From: Synechococcales cyanobacterium CRU_2_2
Lineage (GTDB): Bacteria > Cyanobacteriota > Cyanobacteriia > PCC-9006 > JAAUQQ01
Length of the DNA stretch: 64,000 nt
NCBI GenBank assembly: GCA_012034805.1
Contig: JAAUOP010000002.1
Location: 8,093 to 72,092, forward strand
Direction of reading: 5' to 3'
Below, piece by piece: positions 6,494 through 52,994 of this stretch; position 1 is the first letter of the stretch; every line of letters starts with the position of its first letter. A program made the translations under genes and the position numbers. A model generated the notes under the pieces. The model was not told where the DNA came from and searched no databases. It saw only the letters and a program-made list of their open reading frames with translations.

Positions 6494-7516
6494 ATGCGTA
6501 GAAGGACTGTGATTAAAGCCTCGGCATTGCTCACGCTGGGGGCCTTATCTGCCACTGGACTGAACAGTTGCGGTAATGCGACTCAAACGGCTGCTCCCAA
6601 GGATGGAAGCCAGCTTCCAGCTGGGCCATTGCGAGTGGCGCTGGTGCCTTGGCTGGGTTGGGGACAGGCTCATATTGCTGAGGTCAAAGATTTTTTTAAG
6701 GCAGAAGGGATTGAAGTCGAGCAAACAATTTTCCAAACCGTCAGTGAAGCCAATACGGCCTTGCTTTCCAACAAAGTGGATTTGCTGTGGGCTGTGGCCG
6801 CAGACCTCGTCGTGTTGTCCCAAACGTCACCTGACCTAAAATTTATTTTAGTCTCTGACTATTCTGGCGATGTAGACGGCATTTTAGGCACCCCGATCAA
6901 GAGTGCAGAAGAAGCCAAGGGTAAGACCTTTGCGCGGGAAGATGTGCCCTACGAAATCGTCTTCATGGGCAAGTATCTAGAGACCCTAGGTCTGACAGAG
7001 AAAGACGTCAACATTGTGCCGCTGACCGTCCCCGATGGCGCAGCAGCCTTGGTGGCGGGCAAGGTGGATGCGGTGACGCTATACGAGCCCTTTGTTAGTA
7101 CCGTGTTTAAGGAGCGTAGCGATGTAGAAGTGCTGTTTTCACCGGCAGGAACTAATATTATTATCAATGGCTTGATCGCCCAGGGGGCAGCGATCGCCAA
7201 CCGACGAGCAGACATTTTAGCCTACATGCGCGCTCTGAACCAGGCAGTAGATTTTGCCAAGACCAACCTCGCAGAAGCCCATGAACTGATTGGCAAATGG
7301 GTCGGCCTGAAGGGGGAGGAGGTGACCGCGCTCATGACAAAAGTCGATTTACTCGATCTTGCAGAGAATAAGCAAGTTGCCTTTAATCCGCAAAATAAAT
7401 TGAATGTCGCCAACAGCATTGACTCAGCGGTGCCGATTTTGGTAGGCGCGGGCAAGGTGACAAAATCTGCGCCGGGGGCATCGTTTGTAGATGCCTCATT
7501 CGTAGAAGCGCTCTAG
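6494..7516 (+). CDS. ABC transporter substrate-binding lipoprotein (NMT1/THI5-like)
   Basis: MRRRTVIKASALLTLGALSATGLNSCGN is a Tat-like/lipobox signal. The protein is the third gene of the ABC operon. ATG at 6494 is preferred over the ORF-track start at 6371. Confidence 0.8.
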   Translation: MRRRTVIKASALLTLGALSATGLNSCGNATQTAAPKDGSQLPAGPLRVALVPWLGWGQAHIAEVKDFFKAEGIEVEQTIFQTVSEANTALLSNKVDLLWAVAADLVVLSQTSPDLKFILVSDYSGDVDGILGTPIKSAEEAKGKTFAREDVPYEIVFMGKYLETLGLTEKDVNIVPLTVPDGAAALVAGKVDAVTLYEPFVSTVFKERSDVEVLFSPAGTNIIINGLIAQGAAIANRRADILAYMRALNQAVDFAKTNLAEAHELIGKWVGLKGEEVTALMTKVDLLDLAENKQVAFNPQNKLNVANSIDSAVPILVGAGKVTKSAPGASFVDASFVEAL

Positions 7517-10500
7517 GGCGATCGCCCCAGGTTCATTAGTTTGCACAGAAGATTAACCTGCATCATTTGTTCTAGGCTGGTGCAGGTTGCCGTGGCGAGT
7601 GCTGGACTGGCCACGACAATAGCCAGACATTGGGCGCGGGAAACCGCAACATTGAGACGGTTGCGGTTGAGCAAAAACTCAATCCCTCGGGGTGCATCAT
7701 CCGTGGTGCTGGCACACAGAGAAATGATCACAACAGGGGCTTCCTGGCCTTGAAATTTGTCAACGGTACCGATGCGAGCCTGGGGAGGGGCCTCGCCTAG
7801 GCGTTCTCGTAGGCGGCGCACCTGCAAATTGTAGGGGGCAACAACGAGAATATCGTCGGGGCCGAGCTCGCCCTGGGTTTTGCCGCGATCGCTCACATAA
7901 GCTATCCCCAGCAGTTGTTCAATCAACTCAGCAATCACCGTTACTTCTTCATCACTGGCCTGACCATTGCCCCAGTGCTCAACACTGAGAAAAGCAATGC
8001 CGCTGGCTTGGGACAGCTTCCAGTGTTTCCCCTTGAGTGGCTTCTCTAGAAGGAGCCGATGGTGGCGGGTTTCTGGAGGATGGCCCAGGCGTCCTTCGTA
8101 GATCGATTCGGAAATAAACCGACAGATGCGAGGCTCCATCCGATAGCTGGTATTGAGGAAAATACCCAAATTCGCTGGAATCGTTGCCCGTCCCTGGAGC
8201 AAGTAGCCCAAGGCTGATTGACCGCTCTCGCCAGGGTGACTGCCTTGAATCGGCTGTTCTAGCTGCATGGGGTCACCGATCAGAACAAGGTTGTGGGCAC
8301 AACGGGCTAGGGCGATCAAATTGGCCAGGGCCACCTGTCCGGCCTCATCGACAAACAGGTAGTCGAATTGAGCGATCGCCTCCTGCCGACACAGTTGAAA
8401 TACCGTCGCACCGACCAAGCGATAATCGGGGGGGAGAGCCTCGGTAATTTTGTCTTTGTAATCCACGCCTGGATAACGTTCAACAGCTTCACTCTGACCG
8501 CCAATTTTGGCGATCTTGAGCCTGCGATGACCCTGTACCCGCCCCAGCAAATTCAAAATTACATCATGGCTATTGGCCGAGACCGCGATCGTTTTCCCCT
8601 GTTGCAGCAGATTGAGGATGATCTGGGCTGCGGTGAAGGTTTTGCCACTGCCCGGTGGGCCTTGGATGCAGAGGGTGCTGTGGTCGAGCTGGGCGATCGC
8701 CCGCAGAGTACCGCTGACTAATTCTTCGCCTTCAGCCAGGATTGGCCCAGGTGTATGACCCGTGATGCGGGGCGATCGCCGCTCCAGAAAATCGGCTAAG
8801 GCAGGCTGCAATTCGCCGGTGGCCTGCCACTGCTGAACGGTTTCTAGGATTGCGTCGGCGATTTTGCCGGTGGGGATGACCGTCACATCCATTAGATTCA
8901 GCCGCGCACTGGGCTCCCAGTTGGGCGACTCGGCACGGGCAGTGGTTAAGCGCTGGTCGCTGATTGTCAGAACTGCCAATCCTTGATCCAGATCGAGTTC
9001 GGTGAGGGTGCACTCCTTCAGTTCAATGCGGCTGGGGAAAAACCAGCAGGTGGTTTTGCTGCGCAGCCGGGTTTCCTGGCTGGGATCAAAGCGATATTCG
9101 TAGGCCCAGGATTTACTGCGGGGGGTCGGGCGGAAGGGAAGCCTGTCGGTGCGCTCGAGCCCCACAAGGCAGTCTAGCTCATCGAGGAGATCGGTTTCGT
9201 CTGCAACTAGCCAGGTGAATCGCTGCCACCAAAACGGCTTAGCTTCGCGGCGATGAAACTGGAGCAAGTGGGCCAGGAGCGATCGCGATGCCCAACCCAA
9301 GGATTGAGCCGGGGATTGAGCCGAGGATTGAGCCGAGGTTTCAGAACTAGGTTGTTCTAGCAACGCCAGAGCTAGCTGGGCAGCGGGACTGGGTTCTTTG
9401 AGCTGACGGTGTTGGCTTGCGAATTCTGGGAGATCAGCCCTTGTCTCAGGTGTTGTCTCAGGTATTGTCTCAGGTGTTGTCTCAGCAGTGGACGGTGGGA
9501 CGTAGGAGATACCGGCTAAAGTTTGGAGCGATCGCAGCCAGTCTGCTAGCGCTTGGGTCGAATCGCAATCATCCCGGTTATAGTCCCGAATCTCGCGCAA
9601 GATGGCCGAATCCTCGGGCGTGTTGCCATCGCGCTGTTGTTGCCCCTGAACATGCCCCTGAATATGCCACTGGAAATATTGCACCACCGAAGCCTGGGCA
9701 TTTTTGACCTCACCCTCCCGTTTGCGCCAATAAAACTGCTCCAAACTCTTGATCGAGTAAGAAGGCGTGCCCACACACAGCCCCTGGGTCACCACCCGAT
9801 ACAAATCCACAAAGACCCCACCGCGCAGCATCGAATCCAGCTCCTCCTCCCGCGTGCCATAACGCCCCATCAATCGTTTGAGCGCCGTGGTTTCGTAGGG
9901 TGCGTAGTGGTAGACATGCATCGCTGGATCCCGCTGCCAGCGCTCCCAAATCCAGTCCATAAATCCTTCAAAAGCCCGCTTCTCCATGGTGTCGTCATGA
10001 GCCCACCAGTCCTTAAATTTCAAGACTTGAGTTGTTTGCTCATCTGTTGACTCGTCAACGGGTTCGTGAATTGTTTCGTTGAGATAAGTCGCACCAAACA
10101 AATACTCTAACCCCATCCCTCCATCTGCCAACGGATACCCTTCTAGATCAAAAAAAACATCCAGCGCACTCGCCGGGGGCAGCATTGCCAAACCGCTGTG
10201 GGGTTTGTCGGCGGGAGGCAACAGAATTTCATAAGCAGGACAGTCGCTCTGGCAACTAGACTGAAGCCTTGCTTGCCGCAGTAGTTTTTGGTAAGTTTTG
10301 CGATCGAGTTTGGCAATCCGTTGCTGAGGGTCGGCGATCGCCAATGCCCCCAAACTGGTAATCCCCGCCGCCTCCAGTTTCTTGATCTGATTTTGGGTAA
10401 TGTTGGCCACCAAACTCAGATGATCCACCTCCACCAATACCTGCTCCGCCAGTGTCTGCCAAATCCCATGATCCGTGGATCGAGGTAAGGGACGTCGTTG

Positions 10501-11121
10501 TGGATCAAACTCAGCCATAAAGGCCATAAATGAGCGATGCACCTGACGGTAGTAATGAAAATAGTCCTCCGTGCTAAACTCGCGGCGATCGCCATTGCCC
10601 AGAATCAAGCCAAATTGTTGAGGCCGCACTCCCTGCACTTGCTCTAGCAACTCGCAATAGGCACAGGCTTGCAAAACAAAGTAGGGCTTCGGATTCATGG
10701 CCAGTTTGCACTCCAGCGGTGCATAGTGCCAAGCGCCAAACCGCGATTCCCCACCCCTGGGCGAAGCCCCTCGCCCCTCCACCCGCACTAAGAAGTCCGC
10801 ATAGCCCAACCAATCGCCATGGGCCAGCGCCCCTTGGTAAATCAGGGGCTTACCCGCGTACATCGCCGCCAGCGTCGCCTGGAACCCACCTCGGCTATCA
10901 ATCTCGTAGATCTCTGCCCCCGCCTGACGCAGCGACTCCACATAGCTGCGTTCGTGCTCCTGACCCAGTTGTGTCAGCACTCGCATCATTTGATCGGGCT
11001 CTGGCTGCTCGATCGCCGGATTTTCCAGGGCACAGCGTTCCATCCAGCAGGCAAACTCGCTCTGGAGGTATTGGATTAGGTCACTGGGGGCGTAGAGCAG
11101 GCGATCGCCACGGTTCTGCAT
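7513..11121 (-). CDS. Fusion protein: RecB-like PD-(D/E)xK nuclease (TM0106 type), RNase H-like domain and SF1 (Dna2/Upf1-like) helicase
   Basis: 1202 aa. The N-terminus has GYADFL...PLECKL. The middle has VFFDLEGYP...EYLFG. The C-terminus has helicase motifs GPPGSGKT, LFVDEAGQ, LIGDPMQL, SYRM, KFQGQEA and VAVSRAQ. Confidence 0.85.
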   Translation of the reverse strand: MQNRGDRLLYAPSDLIQYLQSEFACWMERCALENPAIEQPEPDQMMRVLTQLGQEHERSYVESLRQAGAEIYEIDSRGGFQATLAAMYAGKPLIYQGALAHGDWLGYADFLVRVEGRGASPRGGESRFGAWHYAPLECKLAMNPKPYFVLQACAYCELLEQVQGVRPQQFGLILGNGDRREFSTEDYFHYYRQVHRSFMAFMAEFDPQRRPLPRSTDHGIWQTLAEQVLVEVDHLSLVANITQNQIKKLEAAGITSLGALAIADPQQRIAKLDRKTYQKLLRQARLQSSCQSDCPAYEILLPPADKPHSGLAMLPPASALDVFFDLEGYPLADGGMGLEYLFGATYLNETIHEPVDESTDEQTTQVLKFKDWWAHDDTMEKRAFEGFMDWIWERWQRDPAMHVYHYAPYETTALKRLMGRYGTREEELDSMLRGGVFVDLYRVVTQGLCVGTPSYSIKSLEQFYWRKREGEVKNAQASVVQYFQWHIQGHVQGQQQRDGNTPEDSAILREIRDYNRDDCDSTQALADWLRSLQTLAGISYVPPSTAETTPETIPETTPETRADLPEFASQHRQLKEPSPAAQLALALLEQPSSETSAQSSAQSPAQSLGWASRSLLAHLLQFHRREAKPFWWQRFTWLVADETDLLDELDCLVGLERTDRLPFRPTPRSKSWAYEYRFDPSQETRLRSKTTCWFFPSRIELKECTLTELDLDQGLAVLTISDQRLTTARAESPNWEPSARLNLMDVTVIPTGKIADAILETVQQWQATGELQPALADFLERRSPRITGHTPGPILAEGEELVSGTLRAIAQLDHSTLCIQGPPGSGKTFTAAQIILNLLQQGKTIAVSANSHDVILNLLGRVQGHRRLKIAKIGGQSEAVERYPGVDYKDKITEALPPDYRLVGATVFQLCRQEAIAQFDYLFVDEAGQVALANLIALARCAHNLVLIGDPMQLEQPIQGSHPGESGQSALGYLLQGRATIPANLGIFLNTSYRMEPRICRFISESIYEGRLGHPPETRHHRLLLEKPLKGKHWKLSQASGIAFLSVEHWGNGQASDEEVTVIAELIEQLLGIAYVSDRGKTQGELGPDDILVVAPYNLQVRRLRERLGEAPPQARIGTVDKFQGQEAPVVIISLCASTTDDAPRGIEFLLNRNRLNVAVSRAQCLAIVVASPALATATCTSLEQMMQVNLLCKLMNLGRSP

Positions 11122-13423: not shown

Positions 13424-14113
13424 ATGAGTTCTCATTCTGTTCAATCTCGACAGCTCGTCCACCATTCGAATCAACACGAATTTGAGCATCAGCGGGCTGA
13501 GATGGTGAGCTGGCAGCTACAGGCTCGAGGCATCACCGACCCTGCTGTCATCCGAGCAATGTTGGAGGTTCCGCGCCATCGGTTTTTGCCCACGGACTGT
13601 CCGCATCTGGCCTATGCCGACGCGCCGTTGCCGATTGGGTCTAACCAGACGATTTCGCAGCCCTATATCGTGGCCCATATGCTGAGCGCTGCACAAATCC
13701 TGCCGAGCGATACGGTGCTAGAAGTCGGAACTGGCTCGGGCTACGCGACAGCGATTTTGAGCCGCATGGCCATGACCGTTTACAGCGTTGAGATTATCCC
13801 GGATCTGGCGAAAATGGCCCGCGAGACGTTGGGGAGATTGAACTACCGCAATCTTCACATTCAGCTAGGTGACGGTTACTGGGACTTGCCTCAACATGCT
13901 CCCTACGATCGCATTTTGGTTTGGGCCGCCGTTCCCTATGTTCCCCAGGCCCTCTTAGAGCAACTGGCCATGTATGGAAAACTGATCATTCCTGTGGGTG
14001 TGAATCATCAAGAGATTCAGGTGATTACGAAGCGACCTGAAGGGATCGAAACTCAGACCACGATCGCAGCAACGTTTGTCCCCATGGCTGTTGCTGCTCG
14101 AAAACTTCCTTAA
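13424..14113 (+). CDS. pcm: Protein-L-isoaspartate O-methyltransferase
   Basis: VPRHRFLP, QTISQPYIVAHML and the SAM motif VLEVGTGSGYATAIL. Confidence 0.92.
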   Translation: MSSHSVQSRQLVHHSNQHEFEHQRAEMVSWQLQARGITDPAVIRAMLEVPRHRFLPTDCPHLAYADAPLPIGSNQTISQPYIVAHMLSAAQILPSDTVLEVGTGSGYATAILSRMAMTVYSVEIIPDLAKMARETLGRLNYRNLHIQLGDGYWDLPQHAPYDRILVWAAVPYVPQALLEQLAMYGKLIIPVGVNHQEIQVITKRPEGIETQTTIAATFVPMAVAARKLP

Positions 14114-14210
14114 TACATGGGTGAGTCCATGGGTGCAAATCATCGGTAGTGGGTGGGACAGCATTGGTATGATGGTTTGTAGCCCAATCCGCCAGCCACG
14201 ATGTCTCGGT

Positions 14211-14807
14211 ATGTCTCTCACCGCCCGCAGGGTCGATCGCTCAGTGCCCAGCTCTCAGTCTGCCCCGACCCTACTCAAGCTATGGATTGAGGATGGGTTT
14301 TTAGGGGATCAAATGACCCTATTCCAGACGCTACGCCAGAGCATCCGTTGGGAATCCAGCATGGCGGCGCGCCGCACTGCATCCTTTGGCGTACCCTATA
14401 ACTACGCCCAAATGCGCTACCCGGCGGCTCCTATGCATCCCGCTCTGGTACCCGTCGTCGACAAGCTCGATCAAACCCTAGGCGTGCGGTTCAACAATTG
14501 TCTGCTCAACTTTTACGAAACAGAGAGAAGTAAAATGGGCTTCCATGCAGACGACACCACCGACTTGCAACCTGGCACAGGAGTCGCGATCGTCTCTTTG
14601 GGGCATCCTCGAAAGATCACCTATCGCAGCAAAGCGGATCAATCGCTCCAGCGATCGTTTACGTTGTCACCTGGCTCAATGCTGTACATGGGTTCGGAGA
14701 TACAGGACGAATGGGTTCATGCGATTAAGAAACAAAAAGGTGTTGGGCCACGCATTAGCCTGACCTGGCGAGCCTTTAGAGCTGTTGAAAGCGAGAAGGG
14801 AAAATGA
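14211..14807 (+). CDS. AlkB-like Fe(II)/2-oxoglutarate dioxygenase
   Basis: NNCLLNFYE...MGFHADD (H-x-D), WVHAI and RISLTWR. The start at 14211 is chosen to avoid overlap with pcm. The ORF track starts at 14076. Confidence 0.75.
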   Translation: MSLTARRVDRSVPSSQSAPTLLKLWIEDGFLGDQMTLFQTLRQSIRWESSMAARRTASFGVPYNYAQMRYPAAPMHPALVPVVDKLDQTLGVRFNNCLLNFYETERSKMGFHADDTTDLQPGTGVAIVSLGHPRKITYRSKADQSLQRSFTLSPGSMLYMGSEIQDEWVHAIKKQKGVGPRISLTWRAFRAVESEKGK

Positions 14808-15394
14808 GCCCAGAATAACGAGCCCGAAATGCAATGCAAGATTCTCGAGTTGCCGGGGAAAGAACCTGCAGCAACGTCACTACTTCGATCGCGCTCCAAT
14901 GGTGAGACTTCCGAGAAAGAACATGAAGTTCGAGCTATTCTTGAAGCTTATGTAAATGCTCTATTGACTGTGTAAATAATATTGCATACAGGCGTTAGTC
15001 TATTCTGGCAGCTACCTGCTCATCATTAGCATTTGAGCATCATCGGACTTGAACCCTACAAGCTGCATTACAGCGGGGCAATCCGCCATCACTGGTCACC
15101 CTGGGGGTTCAAGCTTTAACGGTCTGAACATGCGCATTCAACTGCCAGATTATTTAATCGATGGTTTTGGACGTGTGATTGCAACCATACGCCCAAGATC
15201 CAGGCCGTGGGCTCAAGACCTCCAAATCACGAGAGCGACACCGCAATAGCGCAATTATTAATCCGACTCGCCATGTTGTCACCGTGGCGAGCGGGTTGCC
15301 TGCGCTAGCACTGGAGTTGACCCTGAGACTCTAGCGGTCGTTTCCGTCATGGTGACAATCTCCCTTCAAAAAATTCACTTTCAATCATCGCTGT

Positions 15395-16504
15395 ATGCAG
15401 ATATTCAAACCTTTTCTGGATTTATTTAACTATGTCATTGTTCTTCTTTGTGTTCCCTTAAAATATCTGCCAAGCACATATCCATTCTTACCAAAACGAC
15501 TTCGTGCCTTTGTCGAGTCTTGGGATTTAGAGATGATAAACGCCTATATCAATTCCTACGGTAAAAAGATTTACATGGATCAAAGAGCATCCTTCATCCA
15601 CCCTGAGAACTATCGTCCTTTAGTTCAAAGTTCTCCGGAATATCATCTCAGCGAAGCTGATATTCGTGGATTTTACGAAAATGGCTTCATTGGCCCTTTT
15701 ACGATTTGCTCTCCAGAAGAAATGGTAACACTCAGAGAGGAAATTGATCTTCAAATCAGAACCCCTTCCGATGTGTATGACCACCCCTGTGGGCGCGATC
15801 GTCATCTAGATTGTGAGGCTGTTCAAAGTCTCGTTACACGACCTCAATTGACCGAAAGATTGGCTCAAATCCTTGGCCCTGACCTAGCCATGTGGCGCTC
15901 AGGTATTTTTCGCAAAGAGTCTGGCGCACCCGAAACAGCCTGGCATCAGGCCAATACATATCTGATGGAAGAAGGCTACAAGCCAACACTGTTTCCACCA
16001 AATCTTGATCGACTGTTTCAGCTCACGACCTGGATCGCTTTGGACGACGTTGATCTTGAAAATGGTTGTCTTCAGTTTGTACCTGGAAGCCATCATCAGA
16101 TTAATAAAATGCTTGTGGGTGGAAAAGGTGCTGAGGGCTTTGCGAATGTTCAGGTTAAGATAGATGCTGAAATCGATCCTAAAACTGTCTATAGCGCTGA
16201 AATGAAAGCTGGACAATGCATCATTTTTACAGAACGCGTTATTCATGGTGCCCAGGCGAATCTGTCCAATCGCCGTCGCTGGGGCATGACATTCCGAACA
16301 GTACAGCCCAGCGTCAAAGTGTATGATGATGAAATGGTTCATAACGTCAAGTATCTGAAGAAGCGGTATGACACTGGCAAATGGGGAATCTTGATGCTGC
16401 GTGGCCAAGATAAGTTTGGCGTGAATCCCCACTACTTAAAGCCTGCTACCAATCGCAATGCGAATCAATCCGAGGCTGCTGCTGTTCCTGTGCTTTGGAA
16501 TTAG
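15395..16504 (+). CDS. SyrB2/CmaB/BarB-type non-haem Fe(II)/2-oxoglutarate halogenase candidate (PhyH superfamily, H-x-A motif)
   Basis: NGFIGPF..SPEEM, DRHLD, ILGPD, WHQANTY (His184, Ala186), NGCLQFVPGSH and MKAGQCIIF...VIHGA are colinear with SyrB2 as I remember it. The start is uncertain (ATG at 15395, or internal Met47/Met61). Confidence 0.7.
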   Translation: MQIFKPFLDLFNYVIVLLCVPLKYLPSTYPFLPKRLRAFVESWDLEMINAYINSYGKKIYMDQRASFIHPENYRPLVQSSPEYHLSEADIRGFYENGFIGPFTICSPEEMVTLREEIDLQIRTPSDVYDHPCGRDRHLDCEAVQSLVTRPQLTERLAQILGPDLAMWRSGIFRKESGAPETAWHQANTYLMEEGYKPTLFPPNLDRLFQLTTWIALDDVDLENGCLQFVPGSHHQINKMLVGGKGAEGFANVQVKIDAEIDPKTVYSAEMKAGQCIIFTERVIHGAQANLSNRRRWGMTFRTVQPSVKVYDDEMVHNVKYLKKRYDTGKWGILMLRGQDKFGVNPHYLKPATNRNANQSEAAAVPVLWN

Positions 16505-16595: not shown

Positions 16596-17309
16596 CTATT
16601 CTGAAGGTGCGTCGGCAGACTCTAGGGGCAACACGCAGAACGCTCCGGGTTGCAAATTTCCTAACTCAAAATCACCAATGCGGCTGCGGTGTAGAGCCAA
16701 CACCTCATAATTGAAATGCTTAAACATGCGTCGCACTTGCCGGTATCGGCCTTCGTACAGGGTCAAACTTGCCTTGTGTTCAGTCACAAACACGAGCTCC
16801 GCTGGTAAACAGGGCTTCTCCTCACCCTCTAATACAATGTCGCCCTTGGCAAACCGCTTAATCAACGACGATCGCAGCGGTGCATCCACCGTTACCTCGT
16901 AGACCTTGGGCTTGCGGTAGCGCGGTGATGTCCAGCGATGCACCACCTCGCCCAAATCGGTCACCAAGATCAAGCCGCTGGTTTCCTTGTCGAGCCGTCC
17001 CACCGTCGTGGGCTGCGGATTGCGCGCCATCCACAATTCTGGCAACAGCTCGTAGATATTCTCACCGGGGGGAGCCGTGTGGGAGCAAACATATCCCAGG
17101 GGCTTGTGCAACATCAAGAACAAGCCTTCTGGGTGATCAATCGTTTGTTCGTCGATTAGGAGCGCTTGGGGGTCAACTTTCAAGGCTGGGTTTTTGACCA
17201 CAGAACCATCGACCAGGGTGACTCGTCCCTGGCGCAGCCAAGCTTTCGATTCCCGGCGGCTGCAATAGCCGTAGCGGGACAGGGTTTGTTCAACTCGTTT
17301 TGGTTTCAA
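16596..17309 (-). CDS. rsuA: Pseudouridine synthase, RsuA/RluB family, with an S4 domain
   Basis: N-terminal S4-like region (LSRYGYCSRRESKAWLRQGRVTL) and the catalytic motif GRLDKETSGLIL. Confidence 0.8.
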   Translation of the reverse strand: MKPKRVEQTLSRYGYCSRRESKAWLRQGRVTLVDGSVVKNPALKVDPQALLIDEQTIDHPEGLFLMLHKPLGYVCSHTAPPGENIYELLPELWMARNPQPTTVGRLDKETSGLILVTDLGEVVHRWTSPRYRKPKVYEVTVDAPLRSSLIKRFAKGDIVLEGEEKPCLPAELVFVTEHKASLTLYEGRYRQVRRMFKHFNYEVLALHRSRIGDFELGNLQPGAFCVLPLESADAPSE

Positions 17310-17320
17310 ACTACGTTCCT

Positions 17321-17998
17321 TCAGACTTCTTCGGTTGGGCTACCAGGTGAAGCTCCAGAGGATGAAGCTCCAGTCGATTGAGATTGCCACAGCTTAGGTA
17401 AAATCAAACCTGAACGATCGCGGTAAGCCCCAAACTCAGGATAGCGCGAGAGGGACTGGTCTTTTTTGCGCATGTTGGGAACGAAAATTGCTGCGACAAA
17501 CAGGCCCAACACGATCGCCGGAATCCAGTGCCAGGAAAGCAACACAAAGCTAGCATAAATCAAAACTTCGCCAAGATAGTTGGTATTGCGACAGCGGGCG
17601 AAGAAGCCTTCGGTGATCAAGCCGGGCTGGTATTTGAGCGTGTAGTACTTTTGGGCATCGCTGGTGTAGTGCAGAAACACGCCCAAAACATTGAGGCCGA
17701 CAGCGGCAGCGATCGCCCCCGTCGGCACCGCCACACCACTGCGAATCAACAGCCAGGGTGCAACCCAATAGGATGCCAAAGCCACAAAGGTGACGATTCC
17801 CATGGGCAGGGATACCTTTGTTTCCCACTGTTTGTCAGGGTAGATACGATCTTTGAGCAACCACAAGAACCCGTAGGTGCCGTGGAGGGCGAGGTAAATC
17901 CAGGGGGCGATTGCAAAGTTTTGATAGGCAACCATCAAGCCCAAGACCACAATAGCCGTTAGGCCCTTGTGCAAATTAATCGCGTGTTTGATTTTCAT
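17321..17998 (-). CDS. Membrane protein of the DUF1295 / steroid-5-alpha-reductase / ICMT-like methyltransferase fold
   Basis: Polytopic, with the C-terminal motif RNTNYLGEVLIY. Its ATG overlaps the upstream stop (ATGA at 17995-17998). Confidence 0.65.
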   Translation of the reverse strand: MKIKHAINLHKGLTAIVVLGLMVAYQNFAIAPWIYLALHGTYGFLWLLKDRIYPDKQWETKVSLPMGIVTFVALASYWVAPWLLIRSGVAVPTGAIAAAVGLNVLGVFLHYTSDAQKYYTLKYQPGLITEGFFARCRNTNYLGEVLIYASFVLLSWHWIPAIVLGLFVAAIFVPNMRKKDQSLSRYPEFGAYRDRSGLILPKLWQSQSTGASSSGASPGSPTEEV

Positions 17999-19428
17999 CG
18001 TTTTCCTCCGGTTGATTGCGATTCGGGCAAATTGCGCGGCGGGACGGTGCGGCCCTCGTAGAATTTCCGCTCGAGTTGAGTGAGGCCATACCGACTGGCT
18101 AAGGCGGCTAGAGCCAAGATCACGAGGGCGGCTTCAAAGCCTACCGGCAGGGGGGTAAGCCTGGGAAGTAGGGTTGCCAGAGCCCAGGCCAGGGCCGCGA
18201 GGGCGATCGCCCACACTTTCCCTCGCTGAACGTTTTGCAAGGCCCCTCGGCAACTGGCGCAATGTTGAGTGTGGGAAGTGTAGCGATCGAGCAACAGGTC
18301 TAGGTTTTCGATCGCTCCAGGCAGCCTCTGGCCCGGAAACGGGTCTGCCCCGTAGCGATTCACCCAATCCCGCAGGGCCACCACAAAAGTATCCGCCTTC
18401 GTAGGTAGATAAAACGCCTGTTTGTAGGCCTCACTGCCGCCGAGCTTTTCGAGGTAGCGCTCTTGAAAATGCAGAAAAATTTGGTCGTCTTCCAAGACGC
18501 CGTTTTGATTGAGGTGGGAAAACCAAGTCGGGGTCAGTTGGATGAATAAAGCGGGAATTTTGGACGGGAACTTGAAGGGAAATTTGGCAAACAGTCGGCA
18601 CTGGCCTTTGTGGGTGGGGGTTGCATAGACCACTGTCAGCGTGCGACCAAATTGCTGGGAGGTGAGGTCATGCCACATCAGATTTGGGGCAACGAAGGTT
18701 GTGGTCTGAGTGCCCAGTTTGCCAAGACGCGGGCCTTCGGGCCAGATGCCAGTAAAACCACTTTTGTCCTGGGTGAGCAGGTTCATTTGGGTGGGGCCAG
18801 CATTGACGCGGTTGCCCACGGATTTGTGGTGGGTGTAGGGCAAATGACTGGGGTCGAGGACATTTTCGAGTAACGTCAGTGCATCGTAGGGCAGGTCGCG
18901 AAACATGGTGAGCATGACCCAACTGTCGTCGCCGTCTTCGAGGGGATCGACAGTTGGCAATTGAGTTGTGTCAGCATTGCACGCATCGCCCGCATAGGCA
19001 AACAGCAAGCCCTGGTGAATGGCGGTTGGGAGGGCTTTGGCGCAGGCCCGCTGGGCCAATTGGGCTTGAGCCTTGGCAGCTTGTTGCGGAATCACCTCGC
19101 AATCACCCGCCCCTGAAAAAGCCCAGCCGTGGTAAGGACATTCGAGTTGCCCCGCCGCGTTGATCCGGCCCTGGGACAGCGGTGCAAGACGGTGAGGACA
19201 CTGATCTTCGAAGGCCCGCCAAGTGTTGCCCGCTTGATCCCACCAGATCACCAGATCTTGGTCGAGCAGGGTGAAGCGATGGGGCTGGCGCGGGTCGAGA
19301 TCCGATACGAAAAAAAGCGGGTGCCAGGCTTCTTTCCAATCGAACCGCTCGGGGTCTGGGCCTCCAGCCGTCTGGGGCCGATCGCAGGGCGGAGACTGGG
19401 TGGGTTGGAGGAGAGCCTGGTTTTCCAT
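17995..19428 (-). CDS. Rieske [2Fe-2S] oxygenase, pheophorbide a oxygenase (PaO/Tic55)-like
   Basis: Rieske motif CPHRLAPLS...CPYHGWAF, mononuclear iron motif NVLDPSHLPYTHH, C-terminal CxxC (HCASCRG) and a TM tail. Confidence 0.85.
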   Translation of the reverse strand: MENQALLQPTQSPPCDRPQTAGGPDPERFDWKEAWHPLFFVSDLDPRQPHRFTLLDQDLVIWWDQAGNTWRAFEDQCPHRLAPLSQGRINAAGQLECPYHGWAFSGAGDCEVIPQQAAKAQAQLAQRACAKALPTAIHQGLLFAYAGDACNADTTQLPTVDPLEDGDDSWVMLTMFRDLPYDALTLLENVLDPSHLPYTHHKSVGNRVNAGPTQMNLLTQDKSGFTGIWPEGPRLGKLGTQTTTFVAPNLMWHDLTSQQFGRTLTVVYATPTHKGQCRLFAKFPFKFPSKIPALFIQLTPTWFSHLNQNGVLEDDQIFLHFQERYLEKLGGSEAYKQAFYLPTKADTFVVALRDWVNRYGADPFPGQRLPGAIENLDLLLDRYTSHTQHCASCRGALQNVQRGKVWAIALAALAWALATLLPRLTPLPVGFEAALVILALAALASRYGLTQLERKFYEGRTVPPRNLPESQSTGGKR

Positions 19429-29213: not shown

Positions 29214-29351
29214 GGGCCTGTTCCGAAGCAGACGCCCCACAATCTGTCCCCAAGCCAGCCTCAACGGCTCCTGAACCTAGCTACCGTAGAGGCCTGCCTT
29301 TCGTGCTTTGCTTGTAAAATCTTCACCCGATCATTGGGAGCAAAATCCACC

Positions 29352-31295
29352 ATGAATTCCACCCCGCTAATCGATCGCGCCCAACTATCCCCCCAAGAGC
29401 AGGCCAACCTGGCGGCATCGGTGGATTACGAGTGCATTCAGACCATTCCCGAAATCTGGGCGATCGCCTCCCAGCGGTTTGGCAACACCCTCGCCACCCA
29501 CGATCCCCACGGCAGCCCAGCGCTCAAGTTCACCTATCAGGAACTGTGCGCCCATATCCAACTGTTTGCAGCGGGGCTTCAGGCCCTCGGCCTGGTCGCC
29601 GAAGAACATGTGGCGTTGATTTCAGACAACAGCCCTCGCTGGTTGATTGCGGACCAAGGCATCATGACGGCGGGCGGCATTGACGTGGTACGGGGTAGCC
29701 AGAGCGATCGCGACGAATTGCTCTACATCCTAGAACACAGCGACAGTGTGGCGCTGGTCGTCCAGGACAACGCCACCTTGGCCCGACTGCTACCCGATCT
29801 CGAAGGCCTGAACCCCCGCTTCGTGGTTTTGCTCTCCGACGAAACGCCCGCCGGCTCATCGACGCTGCAATTGCTCAACTTTAGTCAACTCCTGGAGCTG
29901 GGCAAGAGCCGCGAGCTTAAATTTGTCCAGCGTCAGCGCAACGATGTCGCCACCTTGATGTACACCTCCGGCACCTCCGGCCAGCCCAAGGGCGTTATGC
30001 TCAGCCACGGCAACCTGCTCTCGCAAGTTATGGGCGCGGCAGCTGTGGTGCGGCTCCAGCCGGGTGAGCGGGTGATGAGCATTTTGCCGATTTGGCATTG
30101 CTACGAACGGACGTTCGAGTATTTTATTTTTTCCCAGGGCTGTAGCCAGATTTACACCAATATTCGCCAGGTCAAAAAAGATCTCAAACAGTTCAGTCCG
30201 CAATACATGGTGGGCGTGCCCCGTTTATGGGAGTCGATTTACGATGGCATTCAAAAACAGTTTCGCGACCAGCCCGAGGGCAAGCAAAAGCTGGTGAACT
30301 TCTTTTTGACCAATAGCGATCGCTACATCCGTGCCCAACGCATCCTCGCCGGACTCGATCTGGAGAATTTGCATCCTAGTGGCGGACAAAAGCTCAAGGC
30401 GGCGGCGGTGCTGCCGGTGTTGTGGGTAATCCATCAACTGGGCGATCGCCTCGTCTATCGCAAAATCCGGGATGGCCTCGGCGGTGGTATCCATTTTGTC
30501 GTCAGTGGGGGGGGATCCATTGCCGACCACCTCGAGGATTTCTTCGAAATCGTTGGCATCAATATCCTAGGAGGCTATGGTCTGACGGAAACCGCCCCCA
30601 TTACCAATGTGCGTCGTCCTTGGCGCAATTTGCGCGGTGCCGATGGCCAGCCCTTAGGGCAGACCGAAGTGGCGATCGTGGATCCCGAAACCCGTCAACC
30701 GCTGCCCGTGGGAGCCCAGGGGCTGGTGCTGATCCGGGGAGCCCAAGTCATGCAGGGTTACTACAAAAATCCCATCGCTACCCAAAAAGCCATCGACCCC
30801 GTAGGCTGGTTTGACACCGGTGACCTGGGGCAAATCACAGGGCATCAGGACTTGATCATTACGGGTCGCGCCAAGGACACCATCGTTCTGACTAATGGTG
30901 AAAACATTGAGCCCCAGCCGATCGAAGATGCCTGTCTCCGCAGTCCCTATGTCGATCAAATCATGCTGGTCGGTCAAGACCAAAAGGCGATCGGAGCCCT
31001 GGTCGTTCCTAACCTCGAAGCCCTCAAAAATTGGGCCGCCAAAGAAAAATTGCCCCTTTCCTTTGCGGATCCCGCAGACTTGACCCAGAAAGACGTTCAG
31101 AACCTCTTTCGTCAAGAGCTTAATCGTGAGGTCAAAAATCGCCCTGGTTTCCGACCTGACGATCGCATCGCGAGCTTCCGACTGCTCGATGAACCCTTCT
31201 CGATTGAGAATGGTTTGCTCACCCAGACCCTCAAGGTGAAGCGTCCCCTTGTCAGTGAACGCTACCGGGCTATTATTGACGAGATGTTCATCTAG
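29352..31295 (+). CDS. Long-chain fatty acid CoA/ACP ligase (AMP-dependent synthetase, Aas-like)
   Basis: AMP-binding motif MYTSGTSGQPKGVMLSHGNL, plus GYGLTETAP and the C-terminal KVKRP. Confidence 0.85.
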   Translation: MNSTPLIDRAQLSPQEQANLAASVDYECIQTIPEIWAIASQRFGNTLATHDPHGSPALKFTYQELCAHIQLFAAGLQALGLVAEEHVALISDNSPRWLIADQGIMTAGGIDVVRGSQSDRDELLYILEHSDSVALVVQDNATLARLLPDLEGLNPRFVVLLSDETPAGSSTLQLLNFSQLLELGKSRELKFVQRQRNDVATLMYTSGTSGQPKGVMLSHGNLLSQVMGAAAVVRLQPGERVMSILPIWHCYERTFEYFIFSQGCSQIYTNIRQVKKDLKQFSPQYMVGVPRLWESIYDGIQKQFRDQPEGKQKLVNFFLTNSDRYIRAQRILAGLDLENLHPSGGQKLKAAAVLPVLWVIHQLGDRLVYRKIRDGLGGGIHFVVSGGGSIADHLEDFFEIVGINILGGYGLTETAPITNVRRPWRNLRGADGQPLGQTEVAIVDPETRQPLPVGAQGLVLIRGAQVMQGYYKNPIATQKAIDPVGWFDTGDLGQITGHQDLIITGRAKDTIVLTNGENIEPQPIEDACLRSPYVDQIMLVGQDQKAIGALVVPNLEALKNWAAKEKLPLSFADPADLTQKDVQNLFRQELNREVKNRPGFRPDDRIASFRLLDEPFSIENGLLTQTLKVKRPLVSERYRAIIDEMFI

Positions 31296-51387: not shown

Positions 51388-51446
51388 AATTCTGGGTTTG
51401 AATTCTGGGTTTGAATTCTGGGTTTGAATTCTGGGTTTGAATTCTA
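51388..51446. repeat. 13-bp tandem repeat, about 4.5 copies (aattctgggtttg)
   Basis: Direct reading. The last copy contains the stop codon of the FHA-reductase gene. Confidence 0.95.
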
Positions 51447-52994
51447 GGCGTCAATCACGACCCGTCCTCTCGGCCTTGCAATGCAGGGCAAGATAAACTG
51501 ACCGCGCTCCGCCAGGGGCAGGGCTTTTGGTTCTGAACTGTAAGTGACTTGGCCAGAGCAGAGCTGTTGTTTGCAAGCGCCGCAGACGCCCATGCGACAG
51601 GCGCTAGGGATGGCAATGTTTGCAGCTTCTGCGATCTCCAAAATTGAATCGGCTTCGTCATAGTTGATGGTCTTAGCCGATTGGGTAAAGACGAGGGTAC
51701 AGTCGTCCAAATCGAGTGGGGAATCTGGCAGCAGCTCCGGGGCGATCGCCGCGATCGCGAGTTCCCCTACTGGCTTTGCCGGGGCACCGAAGGATTCTTC
51801 GTGGTATTGATCCATCGGGAAGTCCAGGCCTATGAGACAGGTCTTAATCGCTGCCATAAAGGGATTGGGGCCACAGACGAAAACTTCGCGATCGCCCAAG
51901 TCGGGTGCGATCGCCTGGATCATGGCCGCATCCATCCGCCCCTGGTAGCCCATCCAGCTCTCACCCAGCGCTGAACCTGTGAGGGTTACGGCTAATTTAA
52001 ACTTAGGATGTTGCTGGTTCAACAACTCTAGCTCTTTGCGAAAGATCAGATCCTGGGGGCTGCGGGTGCTGTAGGCAAAGACAATATCTGTCTCTGCGGC
52101 GGTGTCGCAAATCCAGCGTGTCATCGACATCATTGGGGTGATGCCGCTGCCAGCGGAGAGCAGCAGCATCTTGGGTGCTGGCGTTGGGCCACAGGTGAAT
52201 TGCCCAAATGGGCCTTGGAGCTGAAGTCGGGAACCGATCCTCAAGTGGTCATGGAGCCAGTTAGACGCTAGGCCAGGAGTGGCATCGGGTGCCTCGACGG
52301 GGGCTGGGACGCGTTTGACCGTGATCGCGAGCAAATGGGGGCGAGACGGCGTGGATGAAATGGAATAGGAGCGCACAATGGTTTTTGGGCTGGAGCAGTG
52401 TTCTGCTGAGCTCTCTGGTGAGATGTCTGGTGAATGCTCTAATGAGATCTCTGGTGAATGCTCTGAATGATTCTCCGAGAGCATTCCTAGGGGAATTTGG
52501 AGCGTGACGAATTGCCCTGGCCAATAGTTAAAGTTGAGCTTGGGTTCTGCGATGAACTGAAAGGTTTTGACGTCGTGACTCTCGGGGATGATTTGGACGC
52601 AGCGAACGGTGATTTCTGAGTGGGGAGTCCAGGTTGGGAGTTGGGGATGGGTGGGGGCGATCGCCTCTGATGTATTGGCATCAGTCTGAATCGATTTCAC
52701 GACCAGAAAGAATCCGCAAATTCTGAGCAAATCATCCGCTTGGAGTGCAATATTCTGGCTGGGTAACAACATTTCGTTGTTGAGCCGTGAGCCGTCGGTG
52801 CTGCCAAGATCCGTGAAAAAATATTGACCGTCTCGATACAGAATACGCCCATGAACGCGACTGACTTCAGGGCTGTTCAGCAGCAAGTCGCAACCGGGTG
52901 TGCGACCAATTATCCATTCACAATTGGCTGTAGGGTCGAGAATTTCTTGCTCAACTGTGTAGGTTTCTTCATTGATGATTTTGAGAGTTAGCAT
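51444..52994 (-). CDS. FHA domain fused to a ferredoxin-NAD(P) reductase-type FAD/NAD module and a C-terminal plant-type [2Fe-2S] ferredoxin
   Basis: FHA: IIGRTPGCDLLLNSPEVSRVHGRILY...FTDLGSTDGSRLN. FAD: RSYSISS. NAD: LLLSAGSGITPMMSM. Ferredoxin: CRMGVCGACKQQL. Confidence 0.85.
   Translation of the reverse strand: MLTLKIINEETYTVEQEILDPTANCEWIIGRTPGCDLLLNSPEVSRVHGRILYRDGQYFFTDLGSTDGSRLNNEMLLPSQNIALQADDLLRICGFFLVVKSIQTDANTSEAIAPTHPQLPTWTPHSEITVRCVQIIPESHDVKTFQFIAEPKLNFNYWPGQFVTLQIPLGMLSENHSEHSPEISLEHSPDISPESSAEHCSSPKTIVRSYSISSTPSRPHLLAITVKRVPAPVEAPDATPGLASNWLHDHLRIGSRLQLQGPFGQFTCGPTPAPKMLLLSAGSGITPMMSMTRWICDTAAETDIVFAYSTRSPQDLIFRKELELLNQQHPKFKLAVTLTGSALGESWMGYQGRMDAAMIQAIAPDLGDREVFVCGPNPFMAAIKTCLIGLDFPMDQYHEESFGAPAKPVGELAIAAIAPELLPDSPLDLDDCTLVFTQSAKTINYDEADSILEIAEAANIAIPSACRMGVCGACKQQLCSGQVTYSSEPKALPLAERGQFILPCIARPRGRVVIDA

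Follow-up and report, generated by a model that had tools for sequence, protein, structure and literature searches.

The DNA analysed here is a stretch of 64,000 nucleotides from Synechococcales cyanobacterium CRU_2_2 (contig JAAUOP010000002.1), referred to below as the window, and our subject is a gene at 15395..16504 on its forward strand whose 369-aa product is an Fe(II)/2-oxoglutarate (2OG) halogenase-like protein. An initial annotation, made by reading the sequence, had claimed an open reading frame (ORF) with these limits as an orphan halogenase candidate, and the ORF is confirmed as real. An identical protein, NJR67311.1, is labelled 'hypothetical protein' in the metagenome-assembled genome (MAG) of Synechococcales cyanobacterium RU_4_20. 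As described below, the window protein is a member of a distinct clade related to the halogenases SyrB2 and HctB. The features of the gene are as follows.

15395..16504, + strand: halogenase-like gene (ORF, Pfam, PDB sequence and Foldseek matches)
15407..15463, + strand: hydrophobic helix FLDLFNYVIVLLCVPLKYL, residues 5-23, with flanking basic residues; predicted membrane-associating anchor
15488..15646, + strand: clade-specific N-terminal module, residues 32-84, LP..R....WD..M....S.G.R.Y.DQ.C...P (from alignments)
15671..16279, + strand: PhyH (double-stranded beta-helix) catalytic domain, residues 93-295 (Pfam)
15944..15952, + strand: H184-Q185-A186, the proximal Fe ligand His and the Ala replacing the facial-triad carboxylate; aligns with SyrB2 H116-Q-A118
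16232..16234, + strand: E280, four residues N-terminal of the distal His; matches the position of HctB Glu223, second-sphere near the halide
16244..16246, + strand: H284, distal Fe ligand (in VIHGA); aligns with SyrB2 H235
16295..16297, + strand: R301, invariant; aligns with SyrB2 R254, the binder of the 2OG C5 carboxylate

Active site and clade of the halogenase-like protein

The fold proposed in the initial annotation was borne out by both profile and structure comparisons. The Pfam family PF05721 (PhyH) gives a clear match with 96.8 bits and E 2.8e-27 over profile positions 1-211 of 213, against a gathering threshold of 22 bits, and it is the sole significant Pfam domain in the 369-aa protein, three further matches being weak and under their cut-offs. 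The best PDB sequence match is SyrB2 (2FCT; E 5.6e-32), and CytC3 also matches with E 1.3e-25. An AlphaFold2 (AF2) model built from an input of 44 clade members is confident throughout, including the N-terminal helices (mean predicted local distance difference test score, pLDDT, 92.6; predicted template modelling score, pTM, 0.91), and in Foldseek searches of the PDB its top match is again SyrB2 (E 1e-25, template modelling score 0.75-0.78 when normalised to SyrB2), which is then followed by CytC3 and the hydroxylase ThoJ. All of the motifs that had been read from the translation, i.e. NGFIGPF..SPEEM, DRHLD, ILGPD, NGCLQFVPGSH and MKAGQCIIFTERVIHGA, are present and align with SyrB2.

The codons tgg-cat-cag-gcc stand exactly at 15941-15952, and the W-H-Q-A that they encode is aligned over the WHQA of SyrB2. 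The SyrB2 alignment places no Asp or Glu at the triad position, which supports the annotated Ala at the site of the carboxylate ligand, as well as the His of VIHGA as the distal ligand. Across an alignment of 164 relatives, H184, H284 and R301 are invariant if a single gapped sequence is set aside; at position 186 there is Ala in 144, Val in 13 and Asp in six, with Asp occurring in short, distant proteins only and neither Asp nor Glu ever found inside the N-terminally extended clade defined below. E280 is conserved in 137 of the 164, and SyrB2-type enzymes have Ser there. Moreover, E280 and R301 correspond to Glu223 and Arg245 of HctB, and HctB-like proteins align in this region as FTESTMH. 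A quantum mechanics/molecular mechanics study of HctB, which is a fatty-acyl-ACP (acyl carrier protein) halogenase in the literature, located Glu223 near the halide in a salt bridge with Arg245 and called it unique to HctB among halogenases, and published models describe this Glu as a second-sphere residue (PMC6218459). Because HctB, a described halogenase, carries the same Glu, E280 is compatible with halogenation. All characterised Fe/2OG enzymes with His-x-Ala/Gly have so far been reported to halogenate (PMC13489965). We regard a halide-binding 2-His active site as highly probable, and, judging from these residues, the window protein would have halogenation activity. A separate group of short PhyH proteins of ∼300 aa (P0067-P0081) was observed to carry His-Gln-Val (WHQVE[AT]F ... 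FLAKC[IV]HGS), with Val at the position of the carboxylate ligand; these HQV proteins are labelled as halogenases by JGI.

Due to the fact that query residue 83 aligns with residue 8 of SyrB2, the protein has an N-terminal extension of ∼75-85 aa, in agreement with the ∼85 aa and the hydrophobic stretch that had been annotated. The stretch forms a helix at residues 5-23, where the Kyte-Doolittle mean is 1.73 over 19 residues, and in the AF2 model it is the first of four N-terminal helices (residues 5-23, 26-31, 34-42 and 45-53). The module that follows at residues 32-84 is missing from SyrB2, CytC3 and HctB-like proteins, and is kept in P0145, a fusion protein described below. The hydrophobic N-terminal segment suggests membrane association of the window protein.

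In the homology search, proteins of 360-415 aa cover ∼90% of the query down to E 1e-54, and below that block the query coverage is ∼70%, with matches to ∼300-aa classical enzymes and HctB-like fusions of acyl-CoA-binding protein (ACBP) and ACP domains. The longer proteins share the hydrophobic helix, then K-P-F-x-F-L, the N-terminal module (LP..R....WD..M....S.G.R.Y.DQPC), WHQA and F.ER.IHG, and the defining features of this extended clade, namely the module, the hydrophobic helix, WHQA and F.ER.IHG, are all found in the window protein. A profile of the N-terminal module had just 59 matches in 1.84 billion representative proteins, always N-terminal with the exception of one fusion, and the whole-protein profile recovered at least 262 clusters at E ≤ 1e-40. 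A scan of species-representative genomes gave 202 relatives, mostly in Planctomycetota (Pirellulales, Planctomycetales, Gemmata) and Acidobacteriota, with a minority in Hydrocarboniphaga, Verrucomicrobiota, Bacteroidota and a few cyanobacteria; culturable carriers include Thalassoglobus, Lacipirellula limnantheis, Gemmata algarum and Acidobacteriaceae KBS 96. In a neighbour-joining tree, computed without bootstrap, the extended proteins form one group apart from the SyrB2-like, HctB-like and 'HQV' groups, and inside it the window protein groups with P0002 and P0003 as sister to P0005 and P0007.

The initial annotation had assigned the protein to the carrier-dependent SyrB2/CmaB/BarB class. The SyrB2-like fold, His-x-Ala, the distal His and the 2OG-binding Arg of that assignment stand, and the class itself does not, as the protein falls into another clade, which has an N-terminal module of its own, and its score against NCBIfam TIGR01762 ('chlorinating enzyme', the SyrB2/CmaB/BarB subfamily) is 155 bits, below the curated whole-protein cut-off of 226.3 bits. 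Other clade members likewise fall short of this cut-off (P0010 with 175, P0054 with 174 and P0145 with 141 bits), hence the NCBI labels 'hypothetical' or 'phytanoyl-CoA dioxygenase family'. The JGI label for such proteins is 'non-heme Fe2+, alpha-ketoglutarate-dependent halogenase'.

Surroundings, composition and history of the gene

The neighbours of the gene are a DUF1400 hydrolase, pcm, an AlkB-type 2OG oxygenase, rsuA, a DUF1295 membrane protein, a PaO-type Rieske oxygenase and aroA, so that the pcm, AlkB-like and rsuA genes named in the initial annotation as housekeeping flanks were all identified. The remainder of the window is housekeeping as well (alaS, ruvC, psbV, ftsH, pyruvate dehydrogenase E2, sppA, purK, thiC and others). 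Two features next to the gene are used below.

14808..15394, no strand: upstream intergenic region, 587 bp, GC 0.49 (Rfam, promoter/terminator scan, comparison with locus L085)
16596..17998, − strand: right flank, rsuA at 16596-17309 and DUF1295 membrane protein at 17321-17998; syntenic with L085, context only

The genes for the PaO-type Rieske oxygenase, DUF1295 and rsuA are tightly packed at 16596-19428 (− strand), with an overlap of 4 nt between the Rieske and DUF1295 ORFs. On the other side, the listed TTG start of the AlkB-type ORF at 14076-14807 (+ strand) overlaps the end of pcm by 38 nt, and its true start is probably further downstream because the Pfam match starts at residue 80.

No PKS (polyketide synthase), NRPS (non-ribosomal peptide synthetase) or carrier-protein (PP-binding) signature was detected within the 64-kb window, and the PROSITE phosphopantetheine-site pattern had no match in its six frames. 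Thus the linked thiolation domain and adenylation enzyme or NRPS expected of a carrier-dependent aminoacyl halogenase were not found in it. The annotated lack of thiolation, adenylation and PKS domains holds for the PKS, NRPS and carrier proteins and has to be amended for adenylation, since an AMP-binding (adenylate-forming) enzyme lies at 29334-31295, 13 kb from the gene; it belongs with the long-chain fatty-acid ligases and not with NRPS A domains.

The gene had been described as visibly more AT-rich than its neighbours, and its G+C is indeed the lowest of the 44 ORFs, with GC 0.445 and GC at third codon positions (GC3) 0.408 versus means of 0.554 and 0.619 (z -3.3 and -3.7). A metagenomic homologue, P0002 in locus L085, has 84% identity and the same right flank in the order hal-rsuA-DUF1295, with position and length conserved; the left flank of L085 differs, and its intergenic DNA is unalignable with that of the window. 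The ratio of non-synonymous to synonymous differences per site (pN/pS), taken as proportions and not as distance-corrected dN/dS due to the saturation of synonymous sites (pS 0.76), is 0.128 between the window gene and its L085 homologue, compared with 0.114 for rsuA and 0.157 for DUF1295. From the shared right flank and the neighbour-like pN/pS it follows that the gene was inherited together with its neighbours since the split from the L085 lineage, and it is under purifying selection. Horizontal acquisition, as suggested in the initial annotation, is thus retained as far as the foreign composition is concerned, and any such transfer was not recent, given the 84% homologue with the same right flank, the neighbour-like pN/pS and the lack of mobile-element scars: the gene is foreign in composition, and neither a recent arrival nor decaying. 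A homologue with 59% identity in locus L001 has GC3 of 0.348 versus roughly 0.54-0.67 and likewise lies among housekeeping genes; the L001 assembly (6.1 Mb) is probably cyanobacterial, as its homologue groups with the window protein in the tree.

The ∼590 bp of upstream noncoding DNA that had been noted amounts to 587 bp. An RNA or regulatory element in this region was considered and rejected, for Rfam gave no match, promoter and terminator signals did not exceed those of the shuffled background, and the region is not conserved in L085. Mobile-element or integration scars were rejected too, as flanking repeats did not exceed chance and the window holds no tRNA genes. Two other genes of the window were noticed for their domain composition. 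At 51444-52994 (− strand) there is an unusual fusion of an FHA domain, then a ferredoxin-NADP-reductase-like FAD/NAD module and a 2Fe-2S ferredoxin domain, and at 7513-11121 (− strand) a 1202-aa protein joins an RNase_H_2-superfamily nuclease-like domain to a superfamily-1 helicase (AAA_11/AAA_12), which may be a defence or repair helicase-nuclease.

Genomic contexts of the relatives

The position of the gene between housekeeping genes had been called unusual in the initial annotation. This view was not upheld by the 90 related loci, where a ketosynthase (KS), fatty-acyl-AMP ligase (FAAL), type III PKS or ACP occurs within 10 kb in only 11 (NRPS A and T domains were not searched for), so that to be an orphan is the rule for the clade, and several other cyanobacterial members also lie amid housekeeping genes.

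The loci with such genes provide clues to the substrate. P0145 (L088:10001-13225; also L089 and L090) is a 1074-aa fusion of a fatty-acyl-AMP-ligase-like domain, a phosphopantetheine carrier and a halogenase of the clade. It has 43% identity with the window protein over residues 32-336, with the N-terminal module kept and the hydrophobic helix replaced, and it is present in two NCBI assemblies (GCA_037025665.1 and GCA_037024395.1) in an operon with a P450, a second PhyH gene being close by. Large genes resembling polyunsaturated fatty acid (PUFA) synthases, i.e. PKS genes with the order enoyl reductase-KS-acyltransferase (AT)-ACP-ketoreductase-dehydratase, directly flank the homologue in a Solibacteraceae MAG and a Lewinella MAG, and PUFA-like or type I PKS genes adjoin it in L008, L031 and L072. 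In the last of these, from a Xenococcaceae cyanobacterium (L072:4565-15890), the homologue lies between a KS-AT-ACP-thioesterase PKS with a type III PKS and genes for an ICMT-family methyltransferase, two sulfotransferases and a flavin (FAD) monooxygenase. The nearest informative relatives, P0005 and P0007 (56-57% identity; L086:6782-15564 and L087:764-13769), are accompanied by a sulfotransferase, a PhyH protein of the HxD hydroxylase type, a MacB-type ABC exporter and a type I PKS.

As side observations on these clusters, that of L072 resembles an alkylresorcinol-type pathway with halogenation and sulfation, and a chlorinated, sulfated lipid product would be conceivable for those of L086 and L087. 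A link between the DUF1295 gene of the window and the ICMT-family gene of L072 was dropped, as no homology was detectable.

In the other phyla different neighbours prevail. An SDR gene is found in 49 of 58 Planctomycetota loci, mostly directly downstream, and genes for an EEP-family protein and a cardiolipin synthase often come next; three Acidobacteriota loci have the order hal-GT4-SDR-AMP-binding-carbamoyltransferase. A single neighbour conserved in all phyla was rejected, since SDR adjacency is confined to Planctomycetota and a few Acidobacteriota, and antiporter adjacency to nine loci. Separately, a gene of the Na+/H+-exchanger family (CPA) was seen directly after the homologue in gammaproteobacterial and some acidobacterial genomes (L002-L006, L009, L010, L012 and L017), with a gap of 20-30 bp in Hydrocarboniphaga. 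When 30 partner proteins from the related loci were compared with the window by tblastn, the only matches were rsuA, DUF1295, an unrelated ABC ATPase and the fatty-acid ligase.

Proposed function, alternatives and known systems

For the window gene we favour a functional membrane-associated radical halogenase that acts on a fatty-acyl or lipid substrate, a reading to which we give roughly even chances; the fatty-acyl or lipid chain itself, taken as a separate point, is put forward tentatively, at even chances or somewhat less. The suggestion of a free-substrate or lipid/ACP-directed enzyme in the initial annotation is compatible with this evidence. In the proposed mechanism, Fe would be held by H184 and H284, with Ala186 freeing a coordination site for chloride or bromide and R301 anchoring 2OG. 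By analogy with the family mechanism, an Fe(IV)-oxo-halide would abstract H from an unactivated aliphatic carbon, and the radical so formed on the substrate would then take up the halogen by rebound. The hydrophobic helix and the 50-residue module may serve in membrane placement or form part of the substrate entrance, and the fatty-acyl or lipid chain may be offered to the enzyme either bound to an ACP whose gene lies elsewhere or in the form of a membrane lipid. The gene would have come from a lower-GC donor before the split from the nearest sampled relative, and would then have been kept as a stand-alone gene by purifying selection.

Several results weigh against this proposal. The contexts are heterogeneous across the clade, and two of them count against one lipid role shared by all members: a cation/H+ antiporter gene accompanies the homologue in nine loci, and in cyanobacteria the distant members with 32-34% identity are preceded directly by genes for AlaDH_PNT and saccharopine dehydrogenase, a further long PhyH protein being encoded nearby (L091:6454-13108 and L094:7367-15734), a context that suggests amino-acid or polyamine substrates rather than lipids. 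The FAAL-ACP-halogenase fusion is a single case, as the 120 best matches of a profile search for fusions were all single-domain. No homologue of the partners SDR, sulfotransferase, PKS, FAAL-ACP or cardiolipin synthase was found in the window by tblastn. The hydrophobic stretch is short (∼13-17 residues) and flanked by basic residues at either end, so that it may not be a genuine transmembrane segment. The TIGR01762 score lies under its cut-off, and a literature search found no activity data for any clade member; searches on the clade, on membrane-bound or anchored Fe/2OG halogenases and on chlorosulfolipid gene clusters returned nothing specific.

Alternatively, the enzyme may halogenate a free small molecule, as BesD, AspX and BtnX do, be it an amino acid, a polyamine, a vitamin or some other polar compound of metabolism, with the N-terminal segment as no more than a structural lid. 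Free-substrate relatives of carrier-dependent halogenases are known, as recently demonstrated for AspX and BtnX (PMC13489965), the window holds no carrier protein, the AlaDH_PNT and saccharopine-dehydrogenase neighbours of the distant members would fit, and the confident N-terminal helices of the AF2 model are what might be expected if they packed on the catalytic domain. However, one would hardly expect to find a conserved hydrophobic helix between basic residues in a soluble enzyme with a polar substrate, acyl chains are indicated by the FAAL-ACP fusion and by the neighbouring PKS and PUFA-synthase genes, and the closest relatives with context sit beside PKS and sulfotransferase genes and not amino-acid genes; we thus hold a free small-molecule substrate to be unlikely. 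It is also conceivable that the protein is an oxygenase in spite of its His-x-Ala, catalysing hydroxylation, desaturation or another oxidation through OH rebound set by substrate positioning or with E280 as a relocated carboxylate ligand. E280 is nearly invariant in the clade at a position near the halide in the HctB models, the reaction outcome of SyrB2 reportedly depends on substrate positioning, and HctB is said to be multifunctional. Yet HctB with the same Glu is described as a halogenase, Ala186 is conserved in the clade with no reversion to Asp or Glu, and the characterised His-x-Ala/Gly Fe/2OG enzymes are all reported to halogenate (PMC13489965), which makes an oxygenase quite improbable.

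The best sequence and fold matches, SyrB2 and CytC3, together with the fact that only 64 kb of the genome is visible, would be in line with a classical carrier-dependent aminoacyl halogenase of the SyrB2/CmaB/BarB type whose partners for adenylation and thiolation have their genes in another part of the genome. This we consider very improbable in view of the score below the TIGR01762 cut-off, the separate clade with its own N-terminal module, and the Glu where SyrB2-type enzymes have Ser; moreover, KS, FAAL, type III PKS or ACP genes lie within 10 kb in just 11 of the 90 related loci (a count that does not cover NRPS A and T domains), and such megasynthases as do occur there are of the PKS or FAAL types. 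The foreign composition, the lack of partner genes in the window and the long, non-conserved upstream gap with no recognisable promoter could also be those of a decaying, non-functional remnant of a horizontally acquired gene, but the ORF runs uninterrupted over its full length and encodes all catalytic residues, its pN/pS is 0.128 like that of the neighbours, and position and length are conserved in L085, so that we give such a remnant hardly any credence.

Extended to the clade as a whole, the membrane-associated lipid halogenase proposed for the window gene would mean that its members chlorinate membrane lipids or fatty-acyl chains in the ordinary, non-cluster metabolism of cyanobacteria, Planctomycetota and Acidobacteriota. 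We put this forward as a speculation that is unlikely to hold as stated. If true, it would point to halogenated bacterial lipids as a widespread class that has so far been overlooked in environmentally abundant phyla, made by a new enzyme scaffold, and those relatives that have hydroxylase, sulfotransferase, PKS and exporter genes beside them would become candidates for a part in chlorosulfolipid-type biosynthesis, for which, to our knowledge, the halogenating enzymes have not been identified. Radical halogenases acting on unactivated C-H bonds are rare and wanted as biocatalysts, hence each new substrate class is notable. The gene marks a sizeable clade without a characterised member (at least 262 clusters and 202 species-representative relatives), and the architecture of the clade, with an added hydrophobic N-terminal segment and mostly stand-alone genes, is unlike that of all characterised halogenases. 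The class of chemistry was expected; what was not is the architecture, the range of phyla in which the clade occurs and its habitual position outside clusters. Should the proteins turn out not to halogenate, the rule behind current mining that His-x-Ala denotes a halogenase would have a counter-example in them.

Among known systems, SyrB2 (the syringomycin threonyl-S-SyrB1 chlorinase; PDB 2FCT) and CytC3 share with the window protein the PhyH-type double-stranded beta-helix at ∼28-30% identity, as well as His-Gln-Ala, the distal His, the 2OG-binding Arg and the motifs NGFIGPF, DRHLD, LGP and NGCLQF.PG. Compared with SyrB2, the window protein has 75-85 additional N-terminal residues, Glu in place of Ser231 and none of the ∼20-residue insertions after PGSH; it also has no A-T partner or NRPS nearby, scores below the family cut-off and belongs to a different clade. 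The hectochlorin fatty-acyl-ACP halogenase HctB resembles it in His-x-Ala, in the Glu four residues before the distal His that is paired with a conserved Arg, and in its substrate, a fatty-acyl chain of the same type as we propose here, with ∼30-35% similarity between HctB-like proteins and the window protein over 64-70% of the length. In contrast, HctB has C-terminal acyl-CoA-binding and ACP domains and is encoded in an NRPS/PKS cluster, whereas the window protein has neither and carries an N-terminal extension instead; PF00887 and PF00550, which are present in the HctB-like matches, are not fused to it. At the metal centre the window protein would thus work as SyrB2 or HctB do, although the features that define these two families place it in neither.

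The BesD family, AdaV/AdeV, AspX and BtnX are, like the window protein, stand-alone Fe/2OG enzymes with a 2-His no-carboxylate site and are often encoded outside NRPS/PKS clusters, but they are soluble, act on polar substrates and are not among the sequence or fold matches of the window protein. A 2026 metal-coordination 'atlas' of predicted halogenases contains 70 unexplored clusters (PMC13489965), and the N-terminally extended clade may be one of them. Within the clade, the fusion P0145 has HQA, FTER..HG and the N-terminal module in common with the window protein, and differs from it by a FAAL and a carrier domain in place of the hydrophobic helix.

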